Source: an uncultured Thermoleophilia bacterium
GTDB taxonomy: Bacteria; Actinomycetota; Thermoleophilia; UBA2241
DNA: 64,000 nucleotides
Reading direction: 5' to 3'
Assembly (NCBI GenBank): GCA_963715985.1
Contig: CAVQSP010000010.1
Coordinates: forward strand, 32,001 to 96,000
How positions within the stretch are numbered: the stretch's first letter is position 1; the number at the start of each line of letters is the position of its first letter. Under the pieces are notes generated by a model, which was not told the origin of the DNA, did not search any database, and was given only the letters and a program-made list of their open reading frames with translations. The translations under genes were made by a program, and so were the position numbers. Below, one piece after another: positions 4,921 to 26,423 of this stretch.

Positions 4921-9792
<4,872 letters not shown>

Positions 9793-11035: not shown

Positions 11036-12439
11036 TCACCCGTCCTCGCGCCTGTAGTTCTCCCCGGCCACGAAGTCCTGCACCGTGCGCCGTGCTGCGA
11101 TCTGCCGCAGGCCGGCCTCGGTCACCATGTAGGCGGCGGCCTCGTCGCGGCCGTTGTAGGCGCTCATGCACTCGAGGGAGTAGGCGCCCACGTCGAGGAA
11201 GGCGACGATGTCGCCGACCTTGCTGCAGGTGGGAAGGTAGCGGAAGTCCGACCCGGGGTCGCCGGCGTACACGTCGCCGCCGTCGCACAGCGGACCGCCC
11301 AAGCGGAAGGGCCGCACCGGCGGCTTGCTGCAGTGATTGGCGAGCACGGCACGGAAGTACCAGTGGTAGCTCGAGTGCTCGAGGATGGTGTTGAAGCCGG
11401 CGTCGACCATGAGCCAATCCTCGCGGGTGATGCGTCCGTGGGCGGCCTCGACGAGCTTCGTCTTCTCGGCCTCGACGCGGGTCACGAGGATGGCCGTGTT
11501 GCCGGCGATCGCGCGGCCTGGCTCGAGGAAGAGCTGCAGGTCCGGGCGCGCACGGTGAAGGCGCTCGCCGATGGCTCGCGCGTAGCCCTCCAGCGTGTGC
11601 GGCGCCTCGAAGTAGGTGTCGGGCTCGTCGGCCGTGCGGTCGTAGTAGGGGATCGCGAAGCCGCCGCCGATGTCGAGGTGCTCGAGCCTGATGTCGTGGG
11701 CCGTCTCGATGCGCTCCAGCAGCGCCAGCGCCCGGTCGAGCGCCTCGAGGTAGGGCTCGACGTGCGTGATCTGCGAGCCGATGTGGTAGTGCATGCCGAC
11801 CAGGCGGATGTTGGGCAGCTGGGCCGCCAGACCGAAGGCGCCGAGGGCCTCGTTCACGTCGATGCCGGCTTTCGCGCCCTTGCTGGTGCGCAGGCCGGGG
11901 TGCGTCTCGCTGGCCACGTTGAGGTCCACGCGAAGGGAGACACGCGCCTGCGCGCCGAGGTCGGCGGCCACGTCGGCCACGCGCCGAAGCTCGAAGACCG
12001 AGTCCACGACGATGGCCTCTATGGGTGGCCGCAGGGCGGCGATGATCTCGTCGCGCGTCTTGGCGTTGCCGTTGAAGATGATCTGCCCCGGCTCGAACCC
12101 CGCCGTGCGGGCCTTCCAGAGCTCCCCGCCCGAGTTGACCTCGATGTCGATGCCGCCGCGACGAACGCGGTCGAGGAACCACAGGTTGGAGCAGGCCTTG
12201 CTGGCGTAGAAGACGCGGGTGGCAGGGTGGTGTGCGCGGAAGCCGTCGCGAAGGGTCGCGATGTTGCGGTCGATCTGGGCGGAGCTGAAGAGGAAGAAGG
12301 GCGTGGGTGTGGTGTCCGCCATGCCGGCCACGTCGATGCCGTCGAAGCGCATGCGGCCGCGCTCGCAGGTGATGACGTCCTTCATGGGGTCGGCGATGCG
12401 CGCGAACTCGACGTCGCACTGGGGGGCGTCGGGGTCCAT
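11036..12439 (-). CDS. Fold-type III PLP decarboxylase, diaminopimelate decarboxylase (LysA)-like
   Basis: YASKA (PLP lysine), HYHIGSQ, DIGGG, EPGR, GPLCDGGD, GAY. Confidence 0.85.
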   Translation of the reverse strand: MDPDAPQCDVEFARIADPMKDVITCERGRMRFDGIDVAGMADTTPTPFFLFSSAQIDRNIATLRDGFRAHHPATRVFYASKACSNLWFLDRVRRGGIDIEVNSGGELWKARTAGFEPGQIIFNGNAKTRDEIIAALRPPIEAIVVDSVFELRRVADVAADLGAQARVSLRVDLNVASETHPGLRTSKGAKAGIDVNEALGAFGLAAQLPNIRLVGMHYHIGSQITHVEPYLEALDRALALLERIETAHDIRLEHLDIGGGFAIPYYDRTADEPDTYFEAPHTLEGYARAIGERLHRARPDLQLFLEPGRAIAGNTAILVTRVEAEKTKLVEAAHGRITREDWLMVDAGFNTILEHSSYHWYFRAVLANHCSKPPVRPFRLGGPLCDGGDVYAGDPGSDFRYLPTCSKVGDIVAFLDVGAYSLECMSAYNGRDEAAAYMVTEAGLRQIAARRTVQDFVAGENYRREDG

Positions 12440-12505
12440 GGGCGACCTCTCAGCGGTTGGTGGGCGGGGCGCGGCTGAGAAGTGCTTACCCCGCGCCCCG
12501 CGGTC

Positions 12506-13278
12506 TCAGACCGCAGGCGCCCCGGCTGCGGCACGCACCAGCACGCCTCCGAGCGCACCGCTGCGCACGTTCTCGAGGATGCCGCCGTACTCGGCGGCCA
12601 CGAACTCGTACCAGTCGGCGCCGAACTCGCATCTCGATGGCGTCCTTTCTGGCGGCGATGCGACGGCACAGGACCTCGTACCAGCGCGTGAGCTCCGGCT
12701 CCAGGTCGCGGAGCTCGATGAGCGTCCAGCCGGCCGCGGCCAGGGCGCCGGGGAGGGCGCCGGGTTCCAGCGGGCGCCACCATTCCCGGCTCGGGTGCCC
12801 CCGCGTGGCCGCGGCGAAGCGCCCGTGCGGGTCCGAGTACTCCAGCAGGCGGAGCTCGGCGCCCCGCGCGGCCAGCCGGCGAAGCTGCGCGAAGGCCGCG
12901 GGCTGGTCGGGCACGGCGTAGAGGGCCGTCATGGCGTACACGAGGTCGAACGGACCGGCGAGCACGGCGGCGGCGGCCTGCAGGTCGCCCTCCACGATGG
13001 CGACTTCAGGGTGTCGCTTGCGGCCGAGGAGCACGGTCTCGGCGTCGATCTCGATGCCGGTCACCGTGCCGTAGCCGCTGTGCCTGCACCCAGGCCGCCG
13101 TGCCGCCGCCGCCGCAACCGGCGTCCAGGATGCGGCGGCCTGGGTCGGCCGCGAGCCCGGCGAAGAGGAGGCGGTTGGCCTCCTCTTCGCCGGGGTGCGC
13201 GTAGTCGGCGTCGCGGATGAGCGCCAGCAGGCGCTTGCCCGTGGCGTTGTTGATCGCCTTCGGGCCCATCGTCGTCAT
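12506..13278 (-). CDS. Class I SAM-dependent methyltransferase (frameshifts near 13068 and 12632)
   Basis: ILDAGCGGGGTA motif I, VTGIEID, FDLVYA; the reconstructed C-terminus EFGADWYEFVAAEY..V* ends at 12506. Confidence 0.8.
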
Positions 13279-13312
13279 CGTCGCGACCGGTCCCGGGCTT
13301 GTCGGGCCGTGG

Positions 13313-16009
13313 TCAGACGAGCTCGTGCAGGCGCTTGATGAGCGGCTCGAACTCGGGGCCGGTGAAGCAGTACTGGAGCTCGGTGAAGCGGCGCCGGAGC
13401 GCGATGACCGCCTCGCTCACGCGGGCCCCGTGGTTGACGACCGCCGCCATGAGTCCCGCGATCTCGCCGAAGTCCGCCGGCTCCATGCCGAACCGCGTCA
13501 TCTCGGCCACGCCGAGGCGCAGGGCGCCCGAGGCGGTGAAGCCCTCCTCGTCGGGCGCCGCCTGGTAGTTGCAGATGATGTTGTTGCCCTCGAGCAGGCC
13601 GGCGACCTCGGGGCCGCGCCCGTAGCCGACGCGCACGATCACCTGGTGCGTCTCGGTGAAGTCCACGGCCGGGTCGCCGGCCACGTCCAGCCCGGCCTCC
13701 TTGAGCGCCACGGCGAAGGCCTTGGCGTTGCGCAGGACGGCCTGCTGGTAGGCGTCCTTGAAGTGGTTCATCTCGAAGGTCGCCATGAGCAGGCCGAGCA
13801 GCGTGCCCAGGTGGTGGTTGCTCACCGATCCCGGGAAGGCACGGCGCTCGATGGCCTCCCAGAGGTCGTACTTCTCCTGCGGCTCCTCCCAGCGCCCGCC
13901 GATGAGGCCGCGCTGCGTGCCGAAGAAGGTCTTGTGCGTCGACCCGGTGACGAGGTCGGCGCCCTCACGGAACGGCTCCTGGAAGTGCGGCCCCACGAGG
14001 CCGAGCACGTGCGCCATGTCGTACATGAGCACGGCGTTGATGCCGGCGTCGTCGAGGAAGGTCCTGACTTCGTACACCGGCTCCGGGTGCAGCACCATGC
14101 TCTTGCCGAGGATGATGAGCTCGGGGCGCTCCTGCTCGATGAGGTCGAGGAGCGCCGGCACGTCCGGCTTGTACGGGTTGTCGGCGAGCACCGGGATGTC
14201 CACCACGGCCGGCAGTTCGGTGCGTGGGTCGCGGGCCACGTAGTCGCGCAGCGCGCCCATGGGCTGCGCGCTCAGGTGGCCGCCGCGGGCGATGTGGTTG
14301 TTGATCACCTTGGCGATGCGCCGCGGTTCGGCCTTGCGGTCGGCGCGGTTGAGGTAGTCCACCATCGCGCTGAACACGGCGGTGTTGGCCATCTGACCGC
14401 TGATGACGCGTGTCTCCACCTCCGGGCAGCCCAGGTAGGCGCGGAGCTCGTTGGCGAGCAGCCGCTCCACCTCGTGGATGAACCCGGTGCCCTGGTAGTA
14501 GAAGACCTCCTGGTCGTAGAAGGCCTCCGTCTTCTTGTGCTCGGCGTAGCGGAAGGACGGGTCGAGGGTGCTGAGCAGCCGGACCATCGGCGACGCCGTC
14601 ATCTCCGAAGGGATGAGGTCGATGCACTCGTCCTGGCGCCACACGTGGTTGGCCACGGCCAGGTTCAGGAGGCGAAGCGCCTTCTCGCCGGCCTCGCCTC
14701 CCTCGAGCTCGGAGAGCTGTGGCGTGTAGTCCCACACGATGGCCCGTGCGCACGGAGGAGCGTCGCTGCGCAGGTGGTAGGGCACCACGAGTCCGGGGAC
14801 GCGGCGGCCGCGCACGTCGAGCTCCACTTCGTCGTCCTCGACCACGCGGCTGTCCAGGTAGGCGAGGGCTATCGAGCGCAGGTCGTGCTCGTCCGTACGC
14901 GACGAGCAGAGCCCCTCGCCCTCCACGCCCCAGTAGGGCACGGCCGTGCCGCTGGTGACCCAGCCGAGGAGCTCGCCGTCCGGACGCAGGACCTGCGAGC
15001 CTTCGCGGGCGATGCCGCGCCCGGTCACGGCCACGGGCCGCGTGAGGCGTGGCAGGTCGTGGATCAGCGAGTAGTCGCGGGCGAGGATGCGCGCGTACGC
15101 GGCGTGCTGCAGCTCGAGCGCCGCACGCCCGACGAACTCACCCTTCAGCGGCGAGAAGCTGACCGCGAACGTGGCCAGCGGGCAGCTCATGATGGGGATC
15201 TCGTGGCCGTCGGGGTCGAGGCCGAGCTCGTGCCCGTACAGCGGCAGGCCGGCCTCGAGGCGCAGCGTGTCGCGGGCGCCGAGCCCCACGGGAGCGGCTC
15301 CTGCCTCCACCAGCGCGTCCCAGAGTGCCGGCCCGTGCTCGGGCGCCATGAACAGCTCGAAGCACAGCGGCTCGCCGGTGTAGCCGGTGCGCGCGATGCG
15401 TACCGGCACGGGGCGAGCCGTGCCGCCCGGACTCGGCACCTGCATGGTGGCGATGCTGAGCTCGTTGCGGAACGGATCCGGGAGCGTACCGGTCGCGATG
15501 AGGCCGGCGAGGATGTCCCGGGACGCCAGGCCCTGCAAGGCCAGCATGGCGATCTCGCCGGTCTCGTCGGTGAGCTCGACGTCCGGGAAGCCCTCCAGCT
15601 GCTCCTGGAAGTGCTCCCAGTCCTTGACCCGGTTGGCGGCGTTGACGACCAGCAGGTACTCGTCCTCCACGAAGCGGTAGAGGTAGGCGTCGTCCACCGC
15701 GCCGCCGGTCGGTGTGGGCACGATGGTGTACTGCGCCTGCAGGGGGTCGAGCGCCTCGGCGTTGTTGCTGAGCACGTGCTGCAGGAAGCGTGCGGCGCCG
15801 GGGCCGCGCAGCACGAAGCGGCCCATGTGCGACACGTCGAAGAGGCCCGCGCGGCTGCGGGTGGCGAGGTGCTCGGCGAGGATGCCGCCGGGGTACTGCA
15901 CCGGCATCTCCCAGCCGCCGAAGTCGACGAGTCTGGCCCCGAGCGCCACATGACGCCCGTGGAAGGGCGTGCGCAGCAGACCGGCGGCCTCGGGCGATGA
16001 GCCGCTCAC
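13313..16009 (-). CDS. Fusion of aminomethyltransferase GcvT (N-terminal) and serine hydroxymethyltransferase (C-terminal), 898 aa
   Basis: GcvT: LRTPFH, DFGGWEMP, FDVSHMG, RTGYTGE, GLGARDTLRLEAG. SHMT: LIPSE, SGQMAN, GGHLS, YDMAHVLG, GSTHKTFFG. One uninterrupted frame; GTG start overlaps the upstream stop. Confidence 0.92.
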   Translation of the reverse strand: MSGSSPEAAGLLRTPFHGRHVALGARLVDFGGWEMPVQYPGGILAEHLATRSRAGLFDVSHMGRFVLRGPGAARFLQHVLSNNAEALDPLQAQYTIVPTPTGGAVDDAYLYRFVEDEYLLVVNAANRVKDWEHFQEQLEGFPDVELTDETGEIAMLALQGLASRDILAGLIATGTLPDPFRNELSIATMQVPSPGGTARPVPVRIARTGYTGEPLCFELFMAPEHGPALWDALVEAGAAPVGLGARDTLRLEAGLPLYGHELGLDPDGHEIPIMSCPLATFAVSFSPLKGEFVGRAALELQHAAYARILARDYSLIHDLPRLTRPVAVTGRGIAREGSQVLRPDGELLGWVTSGTAVPYWGVEGEGLCSSRTDEHDLRSIALAYLDSRVVEDDEVELDVRGRRVPGLVVPYHLRSDAPPCARAIVWDYTPQLSELEGGEAGEKALRLLNLAVANHVWRQDECIDLIPSEMTASPMVRLLSTLDPSFRYAEHKKTEAFYDQEVFYYQGTGFIHEVERLLANELRAYLGCPEVETRVISGQMANTAVFSAMVDYLNRADRKAEPRRIAKVINNHIARGGHLSAQPMGALRDYVARDPRTELPAVVDIPVLADNPYKPDVPALLDLIEQERPELIILGKSMVLHPEPVYEVRTFLDDAGINAVLMYDMAHVLGLVGPHFQEPFREGADLVTGSTHKTFFGTQRGLIGGRWEEPQEKYDLWEAIERRAFPGSVSNHHLGTLLGLLMATFEMNHFKDAYQQAVLRNAKAFAVALKEAGLDVAGDPAVDFTETHQVIVRVGYGRGPEVAGLLEGNNIICNYQAAPDEEGFTASGALRLGVAEMTRFGMEPADFGEIAGLMAAVVNHGARVSEAVIALRRRFTELQYCFTGPEFEPLIKRLHELV

Positions 16010-17218
16010 GCCTCGGCCCAGCTCTTCAGCAGCCCGAGGCCCTCGCGGATCCGCTCGGTACTGATACCCGAGTAGGCGAAGCGCACGTAGCGCTGCTCCT
16101 CGCCGGGGAGCGCGCGGCCGAAGTGCAGGCGGGTGCAGAAGCTGACGCCCGTCTGCTCCAGCGCCGCACGCCGCAGCTCGTCGTAGGTCGAGAATCCCTT
16201 GCGCTCCATGAGCCCGGTCACGTTGGGATACAGGTAGAACGTGGCCCCCGGGCGGAAGCAGGCGATGCCGGGGATCTCGTTGAGGATGTCGACGGCGGCG
16301 TCGCGGCGCTCCCGGAGGATGCGCGACGATCTCGCGTGGCCCCGCCTGGTCGCCCGTGAGGCCCTCCAGGGCGCCGTACTGGACGAAGTGGTTGGAGCAG
16401 CTCTCGTCGTTGACGTTGAGCTTGGCGATCACGTCGGCGATCCACTGCGGCCCGATCGCGGCGCCCAGGCGCCAGCCGGTCATCGCGAACTTCTTGCTGA
16501 ACGTGTAGAGGATCAGACAGCGTTCCGCCATGCCGGGCAGGCTCGCCAGCGACCGGCTGGCGCCCGAGTAGCGGATGTCCCAGTACGCCTCGTCGCAGAG
16601 CACCAGCAGGTCGTTCCTCAGCGCGAACTCGGCGACGCGCTCCATCTCCGCCGGCGAGCTCTCCGCGCCGGTGGGGTTCTGCAGGTTGTTGAAGATGAGG
16701 ATCCGCGTGCGCGGCGTGACCTGTCGCTCCAGGGCGTCGAAGTCGAGCTCATAGTCCGCGTCGCCCTCCACGTAGCCGTAGGGCAGGGCGACGCCGCCGT
16801 TGAACTCGATCTGGCTCTCGTAGATGGGGTAGCCCGGATTGGGGTAGAGCACCTCGTCGCCGGGGTCCATGACGGAGAGGAGGAACTTGCCGATCACCGG
16901 CTTGCCGCCGGGCTCGACCACCACGTTCTGCGGGCCCAGCTCGAGCCCGCGAGAGGCGGCCACATCGGCGGCCAGGGCCTCGCGCAGCGGCATGATGCCG
17001 GCGTTCGGGCAGTAGCCGGTCTTGCCGTCGCGGATGGCCTTCTCCGCGGCGTCCACGATGTTCCGCGGTGTGGGCAGGTCCATGTCGCCGAGGTGGAAGG
17101 GGTAGACGGTGTGGCCGAGCGCCTGCCACTCGTTGGCCTCGGCCGAGACGGAGAACGCCGTCTCGGTGCCGAGACGGTCGATGCGAGCTGCCACGCGGTG
17201 GTCGAGTCCTGCGCCCAT
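16006..17218 (-). CDS. Class I/II PLP aminotransferase (aspartate aminotransferase-like; frameshift near 16327)
   Basis: NNLQNPTG, DEAY, TFSKKFAMTGWRLG, GATFYLYP, YVRFAY; AAGGAG RBS upstream of ATG 17218. Confidence 0.9.
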
Positions 17219-17242
17219 AGCACTCACTCCTTGAGCCAGAGA

Positions 17243-17272
17243 GGACAGGGTGATGGTCCCATCACCCTGTCC
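17243..17272 (-). terminator. Leader hairpin, probable riboswitch expression platform (attenuator)
   Basis: Perfect inverted repeat GGACAGGGTGATGG-TC-CCATCACCCTGTCC between the aptamer and the RBS. Confidence 0.65.
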
Positions 17273-17289
17273 GCCTGCGGGCTCGTGAG

Positions 17290-17420
17290 CCGCGTGCTCC
17301 AGGGGCCCGTCCGCTTGCGCTCCGTTGGCCTGAGAGATTCGGCGGCGCATCCGGCGCCATCCTTGCCCCTTCGGCGCCCGCCATCTCTTGCGAGCGGCGG
17401 GCTCTCGCGCCAGCATCCGC
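17290..17420 (-). ncRNA. Glycine riboswitch (single aptamer plus a probable ghost aptamer)
   Basis: Minus strand reads GGATG..GCGAGAG-CCCGCC..GGCGGG-CGCCGAAGGGGCAA..GAATCTCTCAGG..GGAC..CTGGAG, matching the glycine aptamer core; lies upstream of a gcvT-containing operon. Confidence 0.85.
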
Positions 17421-17784
17421 CGGGCGTCCTCGGTTGCCCCGAGCGTAGCACTCATGGGCAGCGCCGGGCAACGGGGGCGGGTGCAGGGTCAGCGGGACGT
17501 GGGGACGTCCAGCACCTCGACGTGCACGTGCGCCTTGTGGCGGATGGTGCGCAGCACGTCGATGGCCGCCTTGACGCAGTCCTCCAGGCCGGGCTCGGCG
17601 GCTTCACGGGGCAGGCCGACATCAGGTCGCGGCGCTCTGTGCGAGGATCGTCTCCCAGGCGGGCCTCCGTTCTATCCCCCGCCAGGCCGGGTCCGGCCCG
17701 TCACGTCCGGCTCGTGCGGGTGTAGGCTGCGGGGGCGCACGGGTCTTTGTCCGTCAGCTGTCCAGCTGTGCGCGGGGGTCGGAG

Positions 17785-20388: not shown

Positions 20389-20859
20389 ATGATCTCCGAT
20401 GAGCTGATGAAGCGCAGAAACGCCGGCGCCATCATCGACAGGGCTGTCGACGCGATGGTCTCCGTCGACGTCATGAGAAAGCGCGCGATGCAGACGGTCG
20501 GCGATGAGTTCCCGCTCGTGTTCTGGACCGGCACGGGCCGCATCGTCGGTGCCGACGAGAAGACGCTCAGCCTGCTCGTGCGCGGGCTGCGCGCCGACTT
20601 CACGTGGGAGCGTCTCGGGGTCACCTGGCAGCGGCTGCTGGACAACCACACGCTGGACGTCGACGAGCTCGGCGGCGGTCACGACGCCGTGGGCATCGTC
20701 AGCATCTTCGCCCATCTGGCTGCCGGCGCTCTCGATGTGATCGACGAGGACGGCCTGCTGGTGGTCAAGAAGCGTCCCGACAGACCGATCCACCAGTACT
20801 CGGACATGAGCCGGCCCACCGCCTGGGCGCAGTGGCGGCGGGACATCCACGGCGACTGA
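20389..20859 (+). CDS. Hypothetical protein
   Basis: GGAGGG RBS; 156-aa ORF with coding-like codon usage; no recognised motif. Confidence 0.65.
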   Translation: MISDELMKRRNAGAIIDRAVDAMVSVDVMRKRAMQTVGDEFPLVFWTGTGRIVGADEKTLSLLVRGLRADFTWERLGVTWQRLLDNHTLDVDELGGGHDAVGIVSIFAHLAAGALDVIDEDGLLVVKKRPDRPIHQYSDMSRPTAWAQWRRDIHGD

Positions 20860-20893
20860 CGGCCGCCGAGGCATCGCCGTCTCGACCCTCGCC

Positions 20894-21793
20894 GTGATCC
20901 AGCTCTTACGAGACAGGCACGTCTTCAGCCTCTCGGCGACGGCTGAGCCTGCCGCGCGCGTCCCAGCCGGAGGCACCGTTTGCCTCGAGACCTCGGACTG
21001 CTTTGCCGACCAGGTGCGCTCGTCCTCCGATACGTCGGAGGGCGTCGACTGGGAGCACATCAATCCCGCGACGGGGCCCGTCTACGTGGATGGTGCGGAA
21101 CCCGGCGACGTACTCGCCGTCACCGTGGAGCGGATCGAGGTGGCGGACCAGGGCGTGATGGCGGTGAGCGCCGGTTTCGGCGTGCTGCGCGAGCACTTCT
21201 CGGGGACCTCGTTCCGCATCGTCCCGCTACGGGACGGCGCGGCGTTGCTGCCGGGCGGAGCCCGCGTCGCGCTGCGGCCGATGATCGGCGTCATGGGAGT
21301 CGCGCCGGTCGGCGAGCCGGTACCGTGCGGCTCGCCGGGACCGCACGGCGGCAACATGGACACGCAACTCATCGGGGAGGGCGCCACCGTGTATCTGCCG
21401 GTGGCGGCAGCCGGCGCTCTGCTGGCGGCGGGCGACCTTCACGCGGCCATGGGTGACGGCGAGATCAGCGGGACCGGGGTGGAGGTGGCGGGGCGCATCA
21501 CCCTGCGCGTGGACGTGCGCCGCGACCTCGCTCTCGTGAACCCGGTGGTCGAGACGCCGGAGGTCGTGGCGACCGTCGCCTCGGCCGTGACGCTGGACGA
21601 GGCCGCGGACCTGGCGACGCGAGACATGGCCGAGCTGCTGCGCGCGCGCCTCGGCCTCTCCATCGGCGACGCCACGATGCTGATGAGCGCTGGAGGTCAG
21701 CTGCGGGTGTCGCAGGTCGTGGATCCTCTCAAGACGGCGCGCTTCGAGATGTCCAAGGAGATCCTGGCGTGCTTCGCCACCACCCTTTTGTGA
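20894..21793 (+). CDS. Acetamidase/formamidase (FmdA/AmdA) family protein
   Basis: NPATGPVYVDGAEPGD, PMIGVMGV, HGGNMD, GDLHAAMGDGE, SQVVDP. Confidence 0.92.
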   Translation: MIQLLRDRHVFSLSATAEPAARVPAGGTVCLETSDCFADQVRSSSDTSEGVDWEHINPATGPVYVDGAEPGDVLAVTVERIEVADQGVMAVSAGFGVLREHFSGTSFRIVPLRDGAALLPGGARVALRPMIGVMGVAPVGEPVPCGSPGPHGGNMDTQLIGEGATVYLPVAAAGALLAAGDLHAAMGDGEISGTGVEVAGRITLRVDVRRDLALVNPVVETPEVVATVASAVTLDEAADLATRDMAELLRARLGLSIGDATMLMSAGGQLRVSQVVDPLKTARFEMSKEILACFATTLL

Positions 21794-21835
21794 GGGCGGG
21801 ACGGAACGCCGCACGCCCTCTGCTGGAGGTTCCCG

Positions 21836-22711
21836 ATGACCACTGACTACGGCGCCCAGAGCATGACCGCCCCTCTCAAGAGGGTCGTGATGCGGCGGCC
21901 CGGCGAAGACATGGCCGCCGCCGACCCGGCCGCGTGGCACTACACGGCGCCGATCGACCTCGAGCAGGCGCGTGCGGCGCACGACGCCTTCGCGGACGCG
22001 CTGCGCGCCTGGGGCGTCGAGGTGCTGTACCACGACGAGCCGCTGCCGGGGCTCGCCGACGGCGTGTTCGTCTTCGACCCCGCCCTCGTCACCGACCGCG
22101 GCACCGTGCTGCTCAGCATGGGCAAGGAGAAGCGCCGCGGCGAGGAGGAGCCACTGGGCCGCACGCTGCAGGCCTGCGGCGTGCCGCTGTACGGGCGTCT
22201 CGAGGGTGACGCCCGCGCCGAGGGCGGCGACACGCTGTGGCTGGACCACGACACGCTCGCAGTAGGGCGCGGCTTTCGGACGAACGCCGAAGGCGTGCGC
22301 CAGCTCCGCGGCCTGCTCGGCCCGCTCGGTGTCACGGTGGTGGACTACGACCTGCCGTTCTTCACGGGCCCAGAGGCCTGCCTGCACCTGCTCAGCGTCG
22401 TCAGCCCGGTGGACGACGACCTCGCTGTGGCGTACCCGCCGCTCATGCCTACGGCGTTCTGGGCGGAGCTCAAGCGGCGCGGCGTGCGCCTGCTGGAAGT
22501 CCCGGAGGGGGAGTTCCTCCACACGCAGGCGACCAACGTGCTGTGCGTGGCTCCGCGCCGCTGCGTCATGCTGCAGGGCAGCCCTGTGACCCGTCAGCTC
22601 CTCGAAGAGGCCGACTGCGAGGTCGTCACCTTCCCCGGGGAGCCGCTCTCCTTCAAGGCCGAGGGCGGGCCCACCTGTCTCACGCGCCCCGTTCTGCGCG
22701 ACGCCTCCTGA
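21836..22711 (+). CDS. Pentein-fold amidinotransferase / dimethylarginine dimethylaminohydrolase-like enzyme
   Basis: DGVFVFDP, RRGE, EGGD, CLHL, GGPTCL (catalytic Cys-His-Asp set). Confidence 0.88.
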   Translation: MTTDYGAQSMTAPLKRVVMRRPGEDMAAADPAAWHYTAPIDLEQARAAHDAFADALRAWGVEVLYHDEPLPGLADGVFVFDPALVTDRGTVLLSMGKEKRRGEEEPLGRTLQACGVPLYGRLEGDARAEGGDTLWLDHDTLAVGRGFRTNAEGVRQLRGLLGPLGVTVVDYDLPFFTGPEACLHLLSVVSPVDDDLAVAYPPLMPTAFWAELKRRGVRLLEVPEGEFLHTQATNVLCVAPRRCVMLQGSPVTRQLLEEADCEVVTFPGEPLSFKAEGGPTCLTRPVLRDAS

Positions 22712-22724
22712 GGGACGCCGAGCC

Positions 22725-24086
22725 GTGAGCACGGCCGGGGACGACGCCCGTGGAGCGCTGAGCTTCGCCGAGCGCCGCGCGCTCGACGCCCTGGACCTCG
22801 ACGGCCTCGTGGCGCTGGTGCGACGCCTCGTGGCGATCCCCAGCCTCGACGGCGCCGAGAGCCCCGCACAGCGGGCGGTCGGCGCCTGGATGCGGGATGC
22901 GGGGCTGACCGTGGACGAGTGGGAGATCGACCTCGCGGAGCTGGCCGCCCACCCCGACTGGTGCCACGAGGTCGAGCGCGACGAAGCGCTCGGCGTGGTG
23001 GGCTGGACCGGGGAGCGGCGCGGCGGCAGGGACCTGCTGCTCAACGGCCACATCGACGTCGTGCCCGTCGGGGACGAGGGCGCCTGGACGAGACCCCCCT
23101 TCGACCCGGCCGTTCGTGACGGCCGGGTCTACGGCCGCGGCGCCGTGGACATGAAGGGCGGTCTGGCCTGCGCGCTGGCCGCCGCCGCCGCGGTCCACGC
23201 CGCGGGTCTGCGACTTCGCGGTCGTCTGAGCGTGGCGAGCGTGATCGGCGAGGAGGACGGCGGCACGGGTACCTTGGCCACGCTGCTGCGCGGTCACACG
23301 GCGCAGGGTGCCGTGGTCACGGAGCCCACGCGGCTTCGTCTCGTCACCGCGCAGGCCGGCTCCCTGATGTTCCGGCTCACGGTGCCCGGCTTCTCCGCCC
23401 ACGGCTGCGTGCGCGAAGAGGGCGTGAGCGCGGTGGAGAAGTTCCTGCCTCTGTTCGCGGCGCTGCGCCGCCTGGAGGCGGAGCGTTGCGGCGTGGACAC
23501 CGCCGACGGCACGGGCGCGGCGGGCCACGCCGCCGCCGGCGAGCACTCGCACGTCGCGGGCGATCCGCGCTCGCCCCTGTTCGCCGGCTACCGGCTGCCC
23601 TGGCCCATCGAGGTCGGCACGCTGCGGGCCGGTGACTGGGCCTCGAGCGTGCCGGACACGCTGGTCGCCGAGGGCAGGTACGGCGTGGCTGTGGGCGAGG
23701 ATCCGGCGGCGGCCCGGAGGGTCTTCGAGGACGCCGTCGCCCGCGCCGCCGCCGCCGACCCCTGGCTGGCCGCACATCCGCCCTCGGTGGAGTGGTGGGG
23801 CGGCCGCTTCGACCCCGCGGTCACCGCGGAGGACGACCCCATCGTGGCTGCCGTGAGCGGCGCGGCCGCGGCGGTGTGCGGCAGCGCGCCCGCAGTCGAG
23901 GGCGTGACCTACGGCGCCGACATGCGGCTGCTCGTCAATGTGGGCCGCATCCCCACGGTGATGTTCGGCCCCGGCGACGTGCGCGTGGCGCACATGCCCG
24001 ATGAGCACGTCCCTGTCGCGGACCTCGAGGCTGTGGCCCGCACGCTGGTGGTGGCCGCCCTGCGCTTCTGCGGCGCGGAGGAGTAG
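22725..24086 (+). CDS. M20 family deacylase (ArgE/DapE-like)
   Basis: NGHIDVVP, GRGAVDMKGG, GEEDGG, EPT, YGADM, GPG..AHMPDE. Confidence 0.92.
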   Translation: MSTAGDDARGALSFAERRALDALDLDGLVALVRRLVAIPSLDGAESPAQRAVGAWMRDAGLTVDEWEIDLAELAAHPDWCHEVERDEALGVVGWTGERRGGRDLLLNGHIDVVPVGDEGAWTRPPFDPAVRDGRVYGRGAVDMKGGLACALAAAAAVHAAGLRLRGRLSVASVIGEEDGGTGTLATLLRGHTAQGAVVTEPTRLRLVTAQAGSLMFRLTVPGFSAHGCVREEGVSAVEKFLPLFAALRRLEAERCGVDTADGTGAAGHAAAGEHSHVAGDPRSPLFAGYRLPWPIEVGTLRAGDWASSVPDTLVAEGRYGVAVGEDPAAARRVFEDAVARAAAADPWLAAHPPSVEWWGGRFDPAVTAEDDPIVAAVSGAAAAVCGSAPAVEGVTYGADMRLLVNVGRIPTVMFGPGDVRVAHMPDEHVPVADLEAVARTLVVAALRFCGAEE

Positions 24087-26347: not shown

Positions 26348-26423
26348 TGGTGGAGCATAGCGGAATCGAACCGCTGACCTCCTGGGTGCGATCCAGGCGC
26401 TCTCCCAGCTGAGCTAATGCCCC
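26348..26423 (-). tRNA. tRNA-Ala (anticodon CGC)
   Basis: Reverse complement GGGGCATTAGCTCAGCTGGGAGAGCGCCTGGATCGCACCCAGGAGGTCAGCGGTTCGATTCCGCTATGCTCCACCA: 76 nt, G3:U70 pair, encoded CCA. Confidence 0.97.

Follow-up and report, generated by a model that had tools for sequence, protein, structure and literature searches.

An operon in an uncultured wetland actinobacterium of the class Thermoleophilia is headed by a single glycine riboswitch and encodes a protein in which GcvT, the glycine cleavage system's T-protein, is fused to a serine hydroxymethyltransferase (SHMT). This operon is probably glycine-inducible and would serve to use up or assimilate glycine, via serine, toward glycerate. We analyzed a 64,000-nucleotide stretch of contig C10 (referred to as the window) from a metagenome-assembled genome (MAG) of 22 contigs and 4.35 Mb that is 88.8% complete, with a contamination estimate of 7.29%. 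The G+C content of the region is 70%, every feature of the operon is on the minus strand, and positions are those of the window unless a contig or locus is named. The order is a singlet glycine riboswitch, a leader hairpin, an aminotransferase, the GcvT::SHMT fusion, a methyltransferase, and a pyridoxal phosphate (PLP) decarboxylase. An earlier reading made from the letters alone (the sequence-only reading) had described four tightly spaced, co-directional genes, and the spacing bears this out: read from the sequence, the aminotransferase and fusion genes overlap by 4 nt (GTGA), and the next gaps are 34 nt and 66 nt.

Results

A T-protein fused to an archaeal-type SHMT

The fusion gene (13313..16009, GTG start at 16009) encodes 898 amino acids with GCV_T, GCV_T_C, and SHMT domains; the T-protein domains span approximately residues 12-410 and the archaeal-type SHMT approximately residues 450-880. 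The N-terminal half scores above the cut-offs of two GcvT models, NF001567 (303.8; cut-off 300) and TIGR00528 (248.3; cut-off 235.85), and matches the Pfam domains PF01571 (246 bits) and PF08669 (30.7 bits). Residues 9-373 match the solved T-proteins 1yx2, 1woo, 1vlo, and 3a8i at 160-177 bits. By alignment and model scores, this half is like the free-standing GcvT proteins of Bacillus subtilis (1yx2), Thermotoga maritima (1woo), and Escherichia coli (1vlo and 3a8i), from which the fusion differs in that some 470 further residues follow at its C-terminus and make up a whole PLP enzyme.

The C-terminal half appears to be a divergent, archaeal-type SHMT. It matches PF00464 at 104.3 bits (cut-off 27), and its closest solved structure is the SHMT of Methanocaldococcus jannaschii (4uqv, 165 bits), in contrast to 75-83 bits for bacterial and eukaryotic SHMTs. 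The likeness to the archaeal enzyme (4uqv/4bhd) runs along the whole chain and includes the motifs GSTHKTFFG, YD.AHVLGL, and FPG.VSNHHL. The PLP-lysine motif THKT aligns with GSTHKTFFG of 4uqv, together with the neighbouring motifs, and the lysine is nearly invariant across 12 diverse fusions. Apart from being joined to GcvT, the C-terminal half differs from the M. jannaschii protein by a 7-residue insertion after the RYAEH motif.

The fusion is the sole match to the T-protein domain PF01571 in the genome, and its T-half would be expected to work with this genome's H, P, and L proteins. A separate, ordinary glyA-like gene, 31% identical, is found elsewhere in the genome. Sources that name fusion proteins of this kind use only "GcvT" or "aminomethyltransferase".

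A singlet glycine riboswitch in the leader

The leader is likely a type-1-like singlet glycine riboswitch, predicted to be glycine-ON. The glycine aptamer claimed in the sequence-only reading was confirmed with the Rfam model RF00504, which matches 17308-17419 over its full length (1-94) as one aptamer, at 54.8 bits against a gathering score of 32 (E 1.5e-08). With the same model, 29 homologous leaders in relatives score 39-63 bits. We aligned the leader of the window with those of 12 relatives in which the riboswitch is directly before the aminotransferase gene (13 leaders in total). The aptamer and an outer helix, P0, occupy 17297..17436; P0 forms by pairing of a conserved 5' leader, GAACCGAGGA..GCCCGG, with the 3' linker CGGGCCCCUGGAG. 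The consensus fold (RNAalifold) has predicted helices P0, P1, P2, P3, and P3a, with compensatory (double) changes in 6 of 55 pairs and few pairs broken. The covariation support is modest because the 13 leaders are from close kin.

Directly after the 3' strand of P0, all 13 leaders have a hairpin of 6-8 bp whose stem sequence differs between genomes. By its position, the one in the window (17273..17296) is a candidate for the "ghost aptamer" of a type-1 singlet. As described by Ruff et al. (2016, PMC5066625), type-1 singlets have an aptamer followed, and not preceded, by a stem-loop, the ghost aptamer, tied to it by P0 and a kink-turn, and all are predicted to be ON switches; a conserved sequence of the ghost stem and A-minor contacts also belong to that description. 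Crum et al. (PMC6944388) place type-1 singlets ahead of glycine-cleavage genes in Actinobacteria. The layout of the leader would fit this class: there is one Rfam match, and P0 and a covarying hairpin after it are present in 13 of 13 leaders.

A second hairpin (17243..17272; GGACAGGGUGAUG / CAUCACCCUGUCC) is likely the expression platform. Its 13-bp stem is the same in all 13 leaders, bar one G-U, and folds with z-scores of -3.6 to -5.5. It is a perfect hairpin ahead of the ATG at 17218, in agreement with the leader hairpin of the sequence-only reading. The Shine-Dalgarno sequence, AAGGAG (17227..17232), is 8 nt before this ATG, and the ribosome-binding region reads AGGGGUGA in most relatives and AGGAGUGA in the window. 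We assign the platform to this hairpin because the Shine-Dalgarno region is the complement of its 3' arm (UCACCCU); the 5' arm has a sequence similar to the region. Glycine binding would then favour the invariant hairpin and free the ribosome-binding site, a translational switch. We found no canonical sigma-70 promoters in the region. A search for U-tract terminators gave one terminator-like site, inside a gene, which is fewer than the shuffle mean.

The rest of the glycine cleavage system in a second glycine-sensing unit

All parts of the glycine cleavage system except the T-protein appear to be encoded in a second glycine-sensing unit. At C13:84155-90000 (locus L006, 1156-7901), another glycine riboswitch (64 bits) stands ahead of gcvH, gcvPA (frame-split), gcvPB, an unassigned stretch, and the genes for dihydrolipoamide dehydrogenase (lpd) and lipoyl synthase (lipA). 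Because these genes are behind a glycine riboswitch of their own, the system seems to be split over two glycine-sensing units. The sequence-only reading had noted that gcvH and gcvP are missing from the window; this is correct, as genome-wide matches to PF01597 (gcvH) and PF02347 (gcvP) are confined to contigs C13 and C11. P-protein and fusion also tend to be present or missing together: five of five same-genus genomes that lack the fusion (93-100% complete) lack the P-protein and any T domain, and the P-protein is found in four of five genomes that have the fusion.

The fusion is found well beyond this genome. Strong matches are present in 72 of 301 sampled genomes of the class; two families hold these matches (48 of 55 and 23 of 55 genomes), and the ten remaining families have no such match. 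Full-length fusions, 48-67% identical, also occur beyond the class, in Candidatus Formimonas warabiya and in MAGs that carry the labels Desulfobacterales, Desulfatiglandales, Thermodesulfobacteriota, Xanthomonadales, SAR324, Ectothiorhodospiraceae, and Armatimonadetes. The full-length fusion is in about a dozen clusters built at 50% identity, down to 37% identity. The genes gcvPA and gcvPB adjoin the fusion in six loci (L037, L147, L049, L050, L056, and L065) from at least three lineages. On the chromosome of Ca. F. warabiya, a Firmicute, a tandem two-aptamer glycine riboswitch (L058, 6473-6750) is directly upstream of a 58%-identical fusion, an independent pairing of a glycine riboswitch with the fusion. 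One genome (G022) has two fusion copies on two contigs (L037 and L039): one, 77% identical, is in a unit with a riboswitch, a D-2-hydroxyacid dehydrogenase, and a glycerate kinase-like gene (riboswitch-HPR-fusion-GK, abbreviations below), and the second copy, at 66-67% identity, lacks a riboswitch and belongs to an AT-fusion-...-gcvPA-gcvPB unit.

Conserved and variable genes of related operons

The riboswitch-led gene run is conserved among relatives. We compared 37 fusion loci in batches of 17 and 20; the relatives are close kin, so the counts are not independent, and their MAGs vary in completeness. Genes are abbreviated as HPR (D-2-hydroxyacid dehydrogenase), AT (aminotransferase), GK (glycerate 2-kinase-like), TKL (transketolase-like), MT (methyltransferase), and DC (decarboxylase). 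A glycine riboswitch heads the operon in 14/17 loci of the first batch and 15/20 of the second, the latter being 15/15 loci of the family to which the window belongs and 0/5 of the other family. AT is found in 15/17 and 13/20 loci. HPR, whose best matches are glyoxylate/hydroxypyruvate reductases, is in 10 of the 37 (2/17 and 8/20), always between the riboswitch and either AT or the fusion. GK is in nine (3/17 and 6/20), TKL, of 776-786 amino acids, in ten (2/17 and 8/20), MT in 11 (10/17 and 1/20), and DC in four (2/17 and 2/20), never with MT.

The gene orders include riboswitch-HPR-AT-fusion-GK (L132 and L136-L139), riboswitch-HPR-AT-fusion-TKL-GK-DC (L129), riboswitch-AT-fusion-TKL-DC (L130), and riboswitch-HPR-AT-fusion-MT-GK (L027). 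The operon in the window is the shortest form, AT-fusion-MT-DC; elsewhere its genome has a 69.5%-identical transketolase-like gene and weaker matches to the kinase and the reductase. A Xanthomonadales-labelled MAG has TKL next to the fusion, with a convergent aminotransferase gene. In two genomes of a sister genus, SAM (S-adenosylmethionine) riboswitches (RF00162, 49-50 bits) are at L140 16306-16395 and L142 15440-15530, 6-7 kb downstream of the fusion and transketolase-like pair.

A proposed route from glycine via serine toward glycerate

Because the variable members of the operon in relatives comprise a transketolase-like gene and genes assigned to a hydroxypyruvate/glyoxylate reductase and a glycerate 2-kinase, we propose the sequence glycine, serine, hydroxypyruvate, glycerate, phosphoglycerate. 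At high glycine, the riboswitch would turn on the aminotransferase, the fusion, and the downstream genes, likely by release of the Shine-Dalgarno sequence. The T-half, together with H, P (PA/PB), and L, would convert one glycine to CO2, NH3, and 5,10-methylene-tetrahydrofolate, and the SHMT half would join this one-carbon (C1) unit to a second glycine to give serine. The sequence-only reading had likewise proposed glycine-induced synthesis of serine from glycine and C1 units, and the core of the operon, with its riboswitch and fusion, does look like this. The aminotransferase would most likely convert serine to hydroxypyruvate. The operons of relatives would add a hydroxypyruvate reductase making D-glycerate and a glycerate 2-kinase making phosphoglycerate, and/or a transketolase-like enzyme that would fit an alternative use of hydroxypyruvate. 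Transketolases accept hydroxypyruvate as a ketol donor.

The aminotransferase (16006..17218, one extra base near 16325) is, by its domain matches, a class I/II, aspartate aminotransferase-like PLP enzyme. We propose that it is a serine:2-oxoacid aminotransferase; this specificity comes purely from the context, because the protein falls short of every equivalog model and, among solved proteins, is closest to aspartate aminotransferases. Two more paralogues, about 66% identical to the operon's, are at C9:167255-168428 and C3:6177-7350. They give near-identical split matches and may be a duplicated or contaminant stretch.

Several observations, the aminotransferase matches among them, weigh against this reading. 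The SHMT half scores 223.2 with the NCBIfam GlyA model NF000586, below the cut-off of 335, and its closest solved relative is from a methanogen that we take to use a different C1 carrier, for which reason the use of folate by this half is an assumption. The reductase and kinase assignments in relatives are also below NCBIfam cut-offs (217 vs 455 and 207 vs 550, respectively). The operon in the window has neither of these two genes, and the best match to the reductase elsewhere in its genome is 35% identical. In one fusion-bearing genome (G021, 90% complete), no P-protein was found. The minimum-energy folds of the leaders have no one conserved OFF structure, and there were no RNA runs among the 24 runs listed.

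Lineage-specific genes at the 3' end of the operon

The methyltransferase and the decarboxylase appear to be lineage-specific additions, variable accessory members of the 3' end of the operon. The sequence-only reading had offered as a fallback that the last two genes are unrelated passengers. This was nearer the mark than its preferred pathway, yet accessory membership at a variable operon end describes them better.

The methyltransferase (12506..13278, two extra bases near 13077-13079 and 12631) is a class I SAM enzyme with a fold like that of phosphoethanolamine N-methyltransferases. Pfam and NCBIfam gave only generic class-I domains, and the protein atlas only generic clusters. Homologues were found only within this clade (226 matches; the 120 listed are all >= 70% identical), under the name "SAM-dependent methyltransferase". 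In a structure model with a pLDDT (confidence score) of 91.1, Foldseek ranks 1-17 are all phosphoethanolamine N-methyltransferases from plants, Plasmodium, and nematodes, with TM (structural similarity) scores of 0.78-0.84 and with the C-terminal lid included; a profile search against these enzymes gave E 4.6e-13. Like PfPMT (3uj6) and AtPMT (5wp4/5wp5), the protein has the whole-chain fold and the helical lid (TM about 0.8), at 13-22% identity. We took Tyr19, Asp128, and His132 of PfPMT from the titles of mutant structures, and presume that Tyr19/His132 with Asp128 are its catalytic residues. In the profile alignment (3uj6, 3ujc, and 4r6w), an invariant Thr stands opposite Asp128, and opposite His132 there is a gap or insertion or an Ala; Tyr19 is outside the aligned stretch. 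We therefore rejected a true phosphoethanolamine methyltransferase, since neither Asp128 nor His132 is conserved despite the fold match. The modelled likeness is better taken as a lead than as family membership.

The decarboxylase (11036..12439, 467 amino acids) appears, from domain and structure-relative matches, to be a DokD-like paralogue and not the housekeeping LysA. Like DokD (6n2h) and LysA, it is a fold-type III PLP decarboxylase. It scores 312.5 with the LysA model TIGR01048, just above the cut-off of 297.9, and 343.9 with the DokD model NF052544, below the cut-off of 700. Its nearest solved protein is the D-ornithine/D-lysine decarboxylase 6n2h (268 bits), and diaminopimelate (DAP) decarboxylases reach at most 196 bits. 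The possibility raised in the sequence-only reading, that it is the only and ordinary LysA of the genome, was rejected: another LysA elsewhere scores 472.1 bits, well above the operon's enzyme.

A decarboxylase gene is at the 3' end of the operon only in the closest relatives of the window, whose fusions are 83-85% identical, and there it is behind whichever gene ends the operon: MT, GK, or TKL. The decarboxylase gene has its own leader, roughly 60 nt in length, which the window has in common with two of four aligned relatives (G014 and G153), although another gene stands upstream there. The shared stretch is at 12440-12508 in the window, about 4410-4500 in L043, and about 13476-13569 in L129; the preceding gene is the methyltransferase in the window and a glycerate kinase in L043 and L129. 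These 60 or so shared nt take in the end of the preceding gene, with its final bases and its stop codon (..GTCTGAGACC..GGGTAAGCA..). Because the leader and the preceding stop codon are shared although the preceding gene differs, the sequences suggest cassette replacement by recombination just upstream of the conserved decarboxylase leader. The 66-nt spacer between methyltransferase and decarboxylase has a GC-rich 11-bp hairpin (12464..12501) that belongs to this leader and is weak (z -2.0; 8 of 200 shuffles fold as well). We rejected a Rho-independent terminator at this place because the hairpin is non-significant.

Alternative explanations

The sequence-only reading had carried the pathway further: serine would be made from glycine, and the enzymes of the last two genes would methylate and decarboxylate a product, for example to a compound like betaine or choline; we considered an ethanolamine-like compound as well. 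The fold of the methyltransferase model and its profile matches speak for such a route, as do the contiguity of MT and DC in an independent 2019-nt contig and the place of the methyltransferase gene in G019, where it is within the operon, with the fusion on one side and the glycerate kinase gene on the other. Set against these are the absence of any locus with both genes among the 37, and the Thr and the gap or Ala at the Asp128 and His132 positions. Further, the decarboxylase is of the Orn/DAP/Arg fold-III family and closest to D-Orn/D-Lys decarboxylase, while, to our knowledge, known serine decarboxylases belong to another fold, and neither an ethanolamine kinase nor another choline or betaine gene was seen beside the operon. 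We consider a betaine- or choline-like product very unlikely. A module that is mainly synthetic seems unlikely too. It would run like the reductive glycine pathway, with C1 units, CO2, and NH3 converted to glycine by reverse glycine cleavage, and glycine then to serine and glycerate for carbon assimilation. All of its steps are reversible by established biochemistry, MAGs of the Desulfobacterales type and a member of the Peptococcaceae that ferments C1 compounds have the fusion beside gcvH/P, and an exit through serine, hydroxypyruvate, and glycerate is used in serine-type variants of the reductive glycine pathway. However, a glycine-ON switch equally fits the disposal of external glycine, and the hosts are, by label only, aerobic-type soil or wetland Thermoleophilia. 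Use or assimilation of glycine via serine toward glycerate is the reading that we retain.

It is also extremely unlikely that the operon is decaying, with real frameshifts and with the aminotransferase and methyltransferase genes as pseudogenes. Such a view could start from three frame breaks that fall within 4.7 kb of the window as given, none of which is mentioned in the sequence-only reading: the aminotransferase gene spans two frames (shift near 16325) and the methyltransferase gene three (shifts near 13077-13079 and 12631). The N-terminal part of the aminotransferase even runs on into the fusion as an open reading frame of 1380 amino acids, an accident that arises because the wrong frame stays open in G+C-rich sequence. 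Each break, however, is exactly one extra base (+1) relative to six aligned relatives. Contigs from four other wetland-metagenome runs (independent short-read contigs that are 95-99% alike) have one base fewer at 12631 (three runs), at 13077 or 13079 (three runs), and at 16325 (two runs), and show no further indels in the coding parts. The essential gene gyrA of the same window and gcvPA elsewhere in the genome are likewise frame-split, and 22 contigs for 4.35 Mb hint at a long-read assembly, the platform being absent from the record. We therefore rejected the pseudogene reading. As relatives and independent contigs lack the extra bases, and gyrA and gcvPA are split as well, the three +1 frameshifts appear to be assembly errors, and the aminotransferase and methyltransferase genes are presumably intact in the organism.

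Flanking genes

The operon is flanked by unrelated genes: gyrB, gyrA, and a convergent GntR/FCD regulator on one side, and a tRNA synthetase and a cation-efflux gene on the other. The gyrA gene (7245-9792, plus strand) is in two overlapping frames, of which 7245-8108 holds DNA_topoisoIV positions 1-196, and 7885-9792 holds positions 193-431 together with the C-terminal propeller; this split is another single-base assembly error. Farther away, there are a tRNA gene (63 bits) at 26351-26423 (minus strand) and, at 20810-24086 (plus strand), a formamidase/acetamidase-family gene, a gene like those for arginine deiminase or dimethylarginine dimethylaminohydrolase (DDAH), and an M20 peptidase gene, which may be a small amidine/amide catabolic cluster.

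Discussion

Taken singly, the elements of this system are already known: the riboswitch RNA, glycine cleavage, SHMT, and the path from serine to glycerate. The departures are the covalent fusion of T-protein and SHMT, its use as the only T-protein, and an arrangement in which one singlet glycine riboswitch would govern an entire route from glycine to glycerate while H, P, and L are under another. Glycine riboswitches control gcvT-gcvH-gcvP operons in Bacillus, Vibrio, and Streptomyces. The operon described here shares with these, and with the type-1 singlets of glycine-cleavage genes in Actinobacteria, the RNA family, the single aptamer with a predicted P0 and 3' stem-loop, the position before a T-protein gene, and the (predicted) induction of glycine breakdown at high glycine. 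It differs in that the T-protein is fused to SHMT, another riboswitch unit holds H, P, L, and LipA, an aminotransferase gene comes first (in relatives, also one for a 2-hydroxyacid dehydrogenase), and the regulon would reach enzymes of serine, hydroxypyruvate, and glycerate.

The gene set of the relatives implies the reaction order of the lower half of the photorespiratory/serine pathway, which consists of the glycine decarboxylase complex and SHMT, serine:glyoxylate aminotransferase, hydroxypyruvate reductase, and glycerate kinase. The serine aminotransferase of plants and methylotrophs is a class V enzyme, whereas the aminotransferase here is class I (aspartate aminotransferase-like). The kinase here is of the archaeal-type 2-kinase family, and the genes form one bacterial operon under an RNA switch. 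A bolder version of our proposal is possible, though we consider it rather unlikely: the fusion would channel two glycines to one serine without ever releasing methylene-tetrahydrofolate, and the operon would be a self-contained bacterial route of the photorespiratory type from glycine to glycerate, possibly reversible as an exit of the reductive glycine pathway, with the added methyltransferase and decarboxylase perhaps acting on side-products of the route.

The fusion looks undescribed in the literature that we searched. We found there no description of a GcvT-SHMT fusion and no glycine riboswitch beside hydroxypyruvate or glycerate-kinase genes; the supplementary gene tables of PMC6944388 may include both kinds of context, and the main text of that paper has no terms for such a fusion or for a serine-to-glycerate regulon.

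Three apparent "pseudogene" breaks in this operon are assembly artefacts, which is a lesson for annotation. Textbooks cover glycine riboswitches and glycine cleavage, but not a T-protein that is covalently joined to SHMT in nature; this fusion is spread over several phyla under no other database name than "GcvT". The fusion is a ready-made part for engineered assimilation of formate or CO2 by the reductive glycine pathway. For serine, the synteny supplies a coherent way out, through hydroxypyruvate and glycerate to phosphoglycerate, and it widens the known regulon of the riboswitch. The fusion itself marks T-protein and SHMT as a functional unit and suggests that C1 units may be handed over between them.

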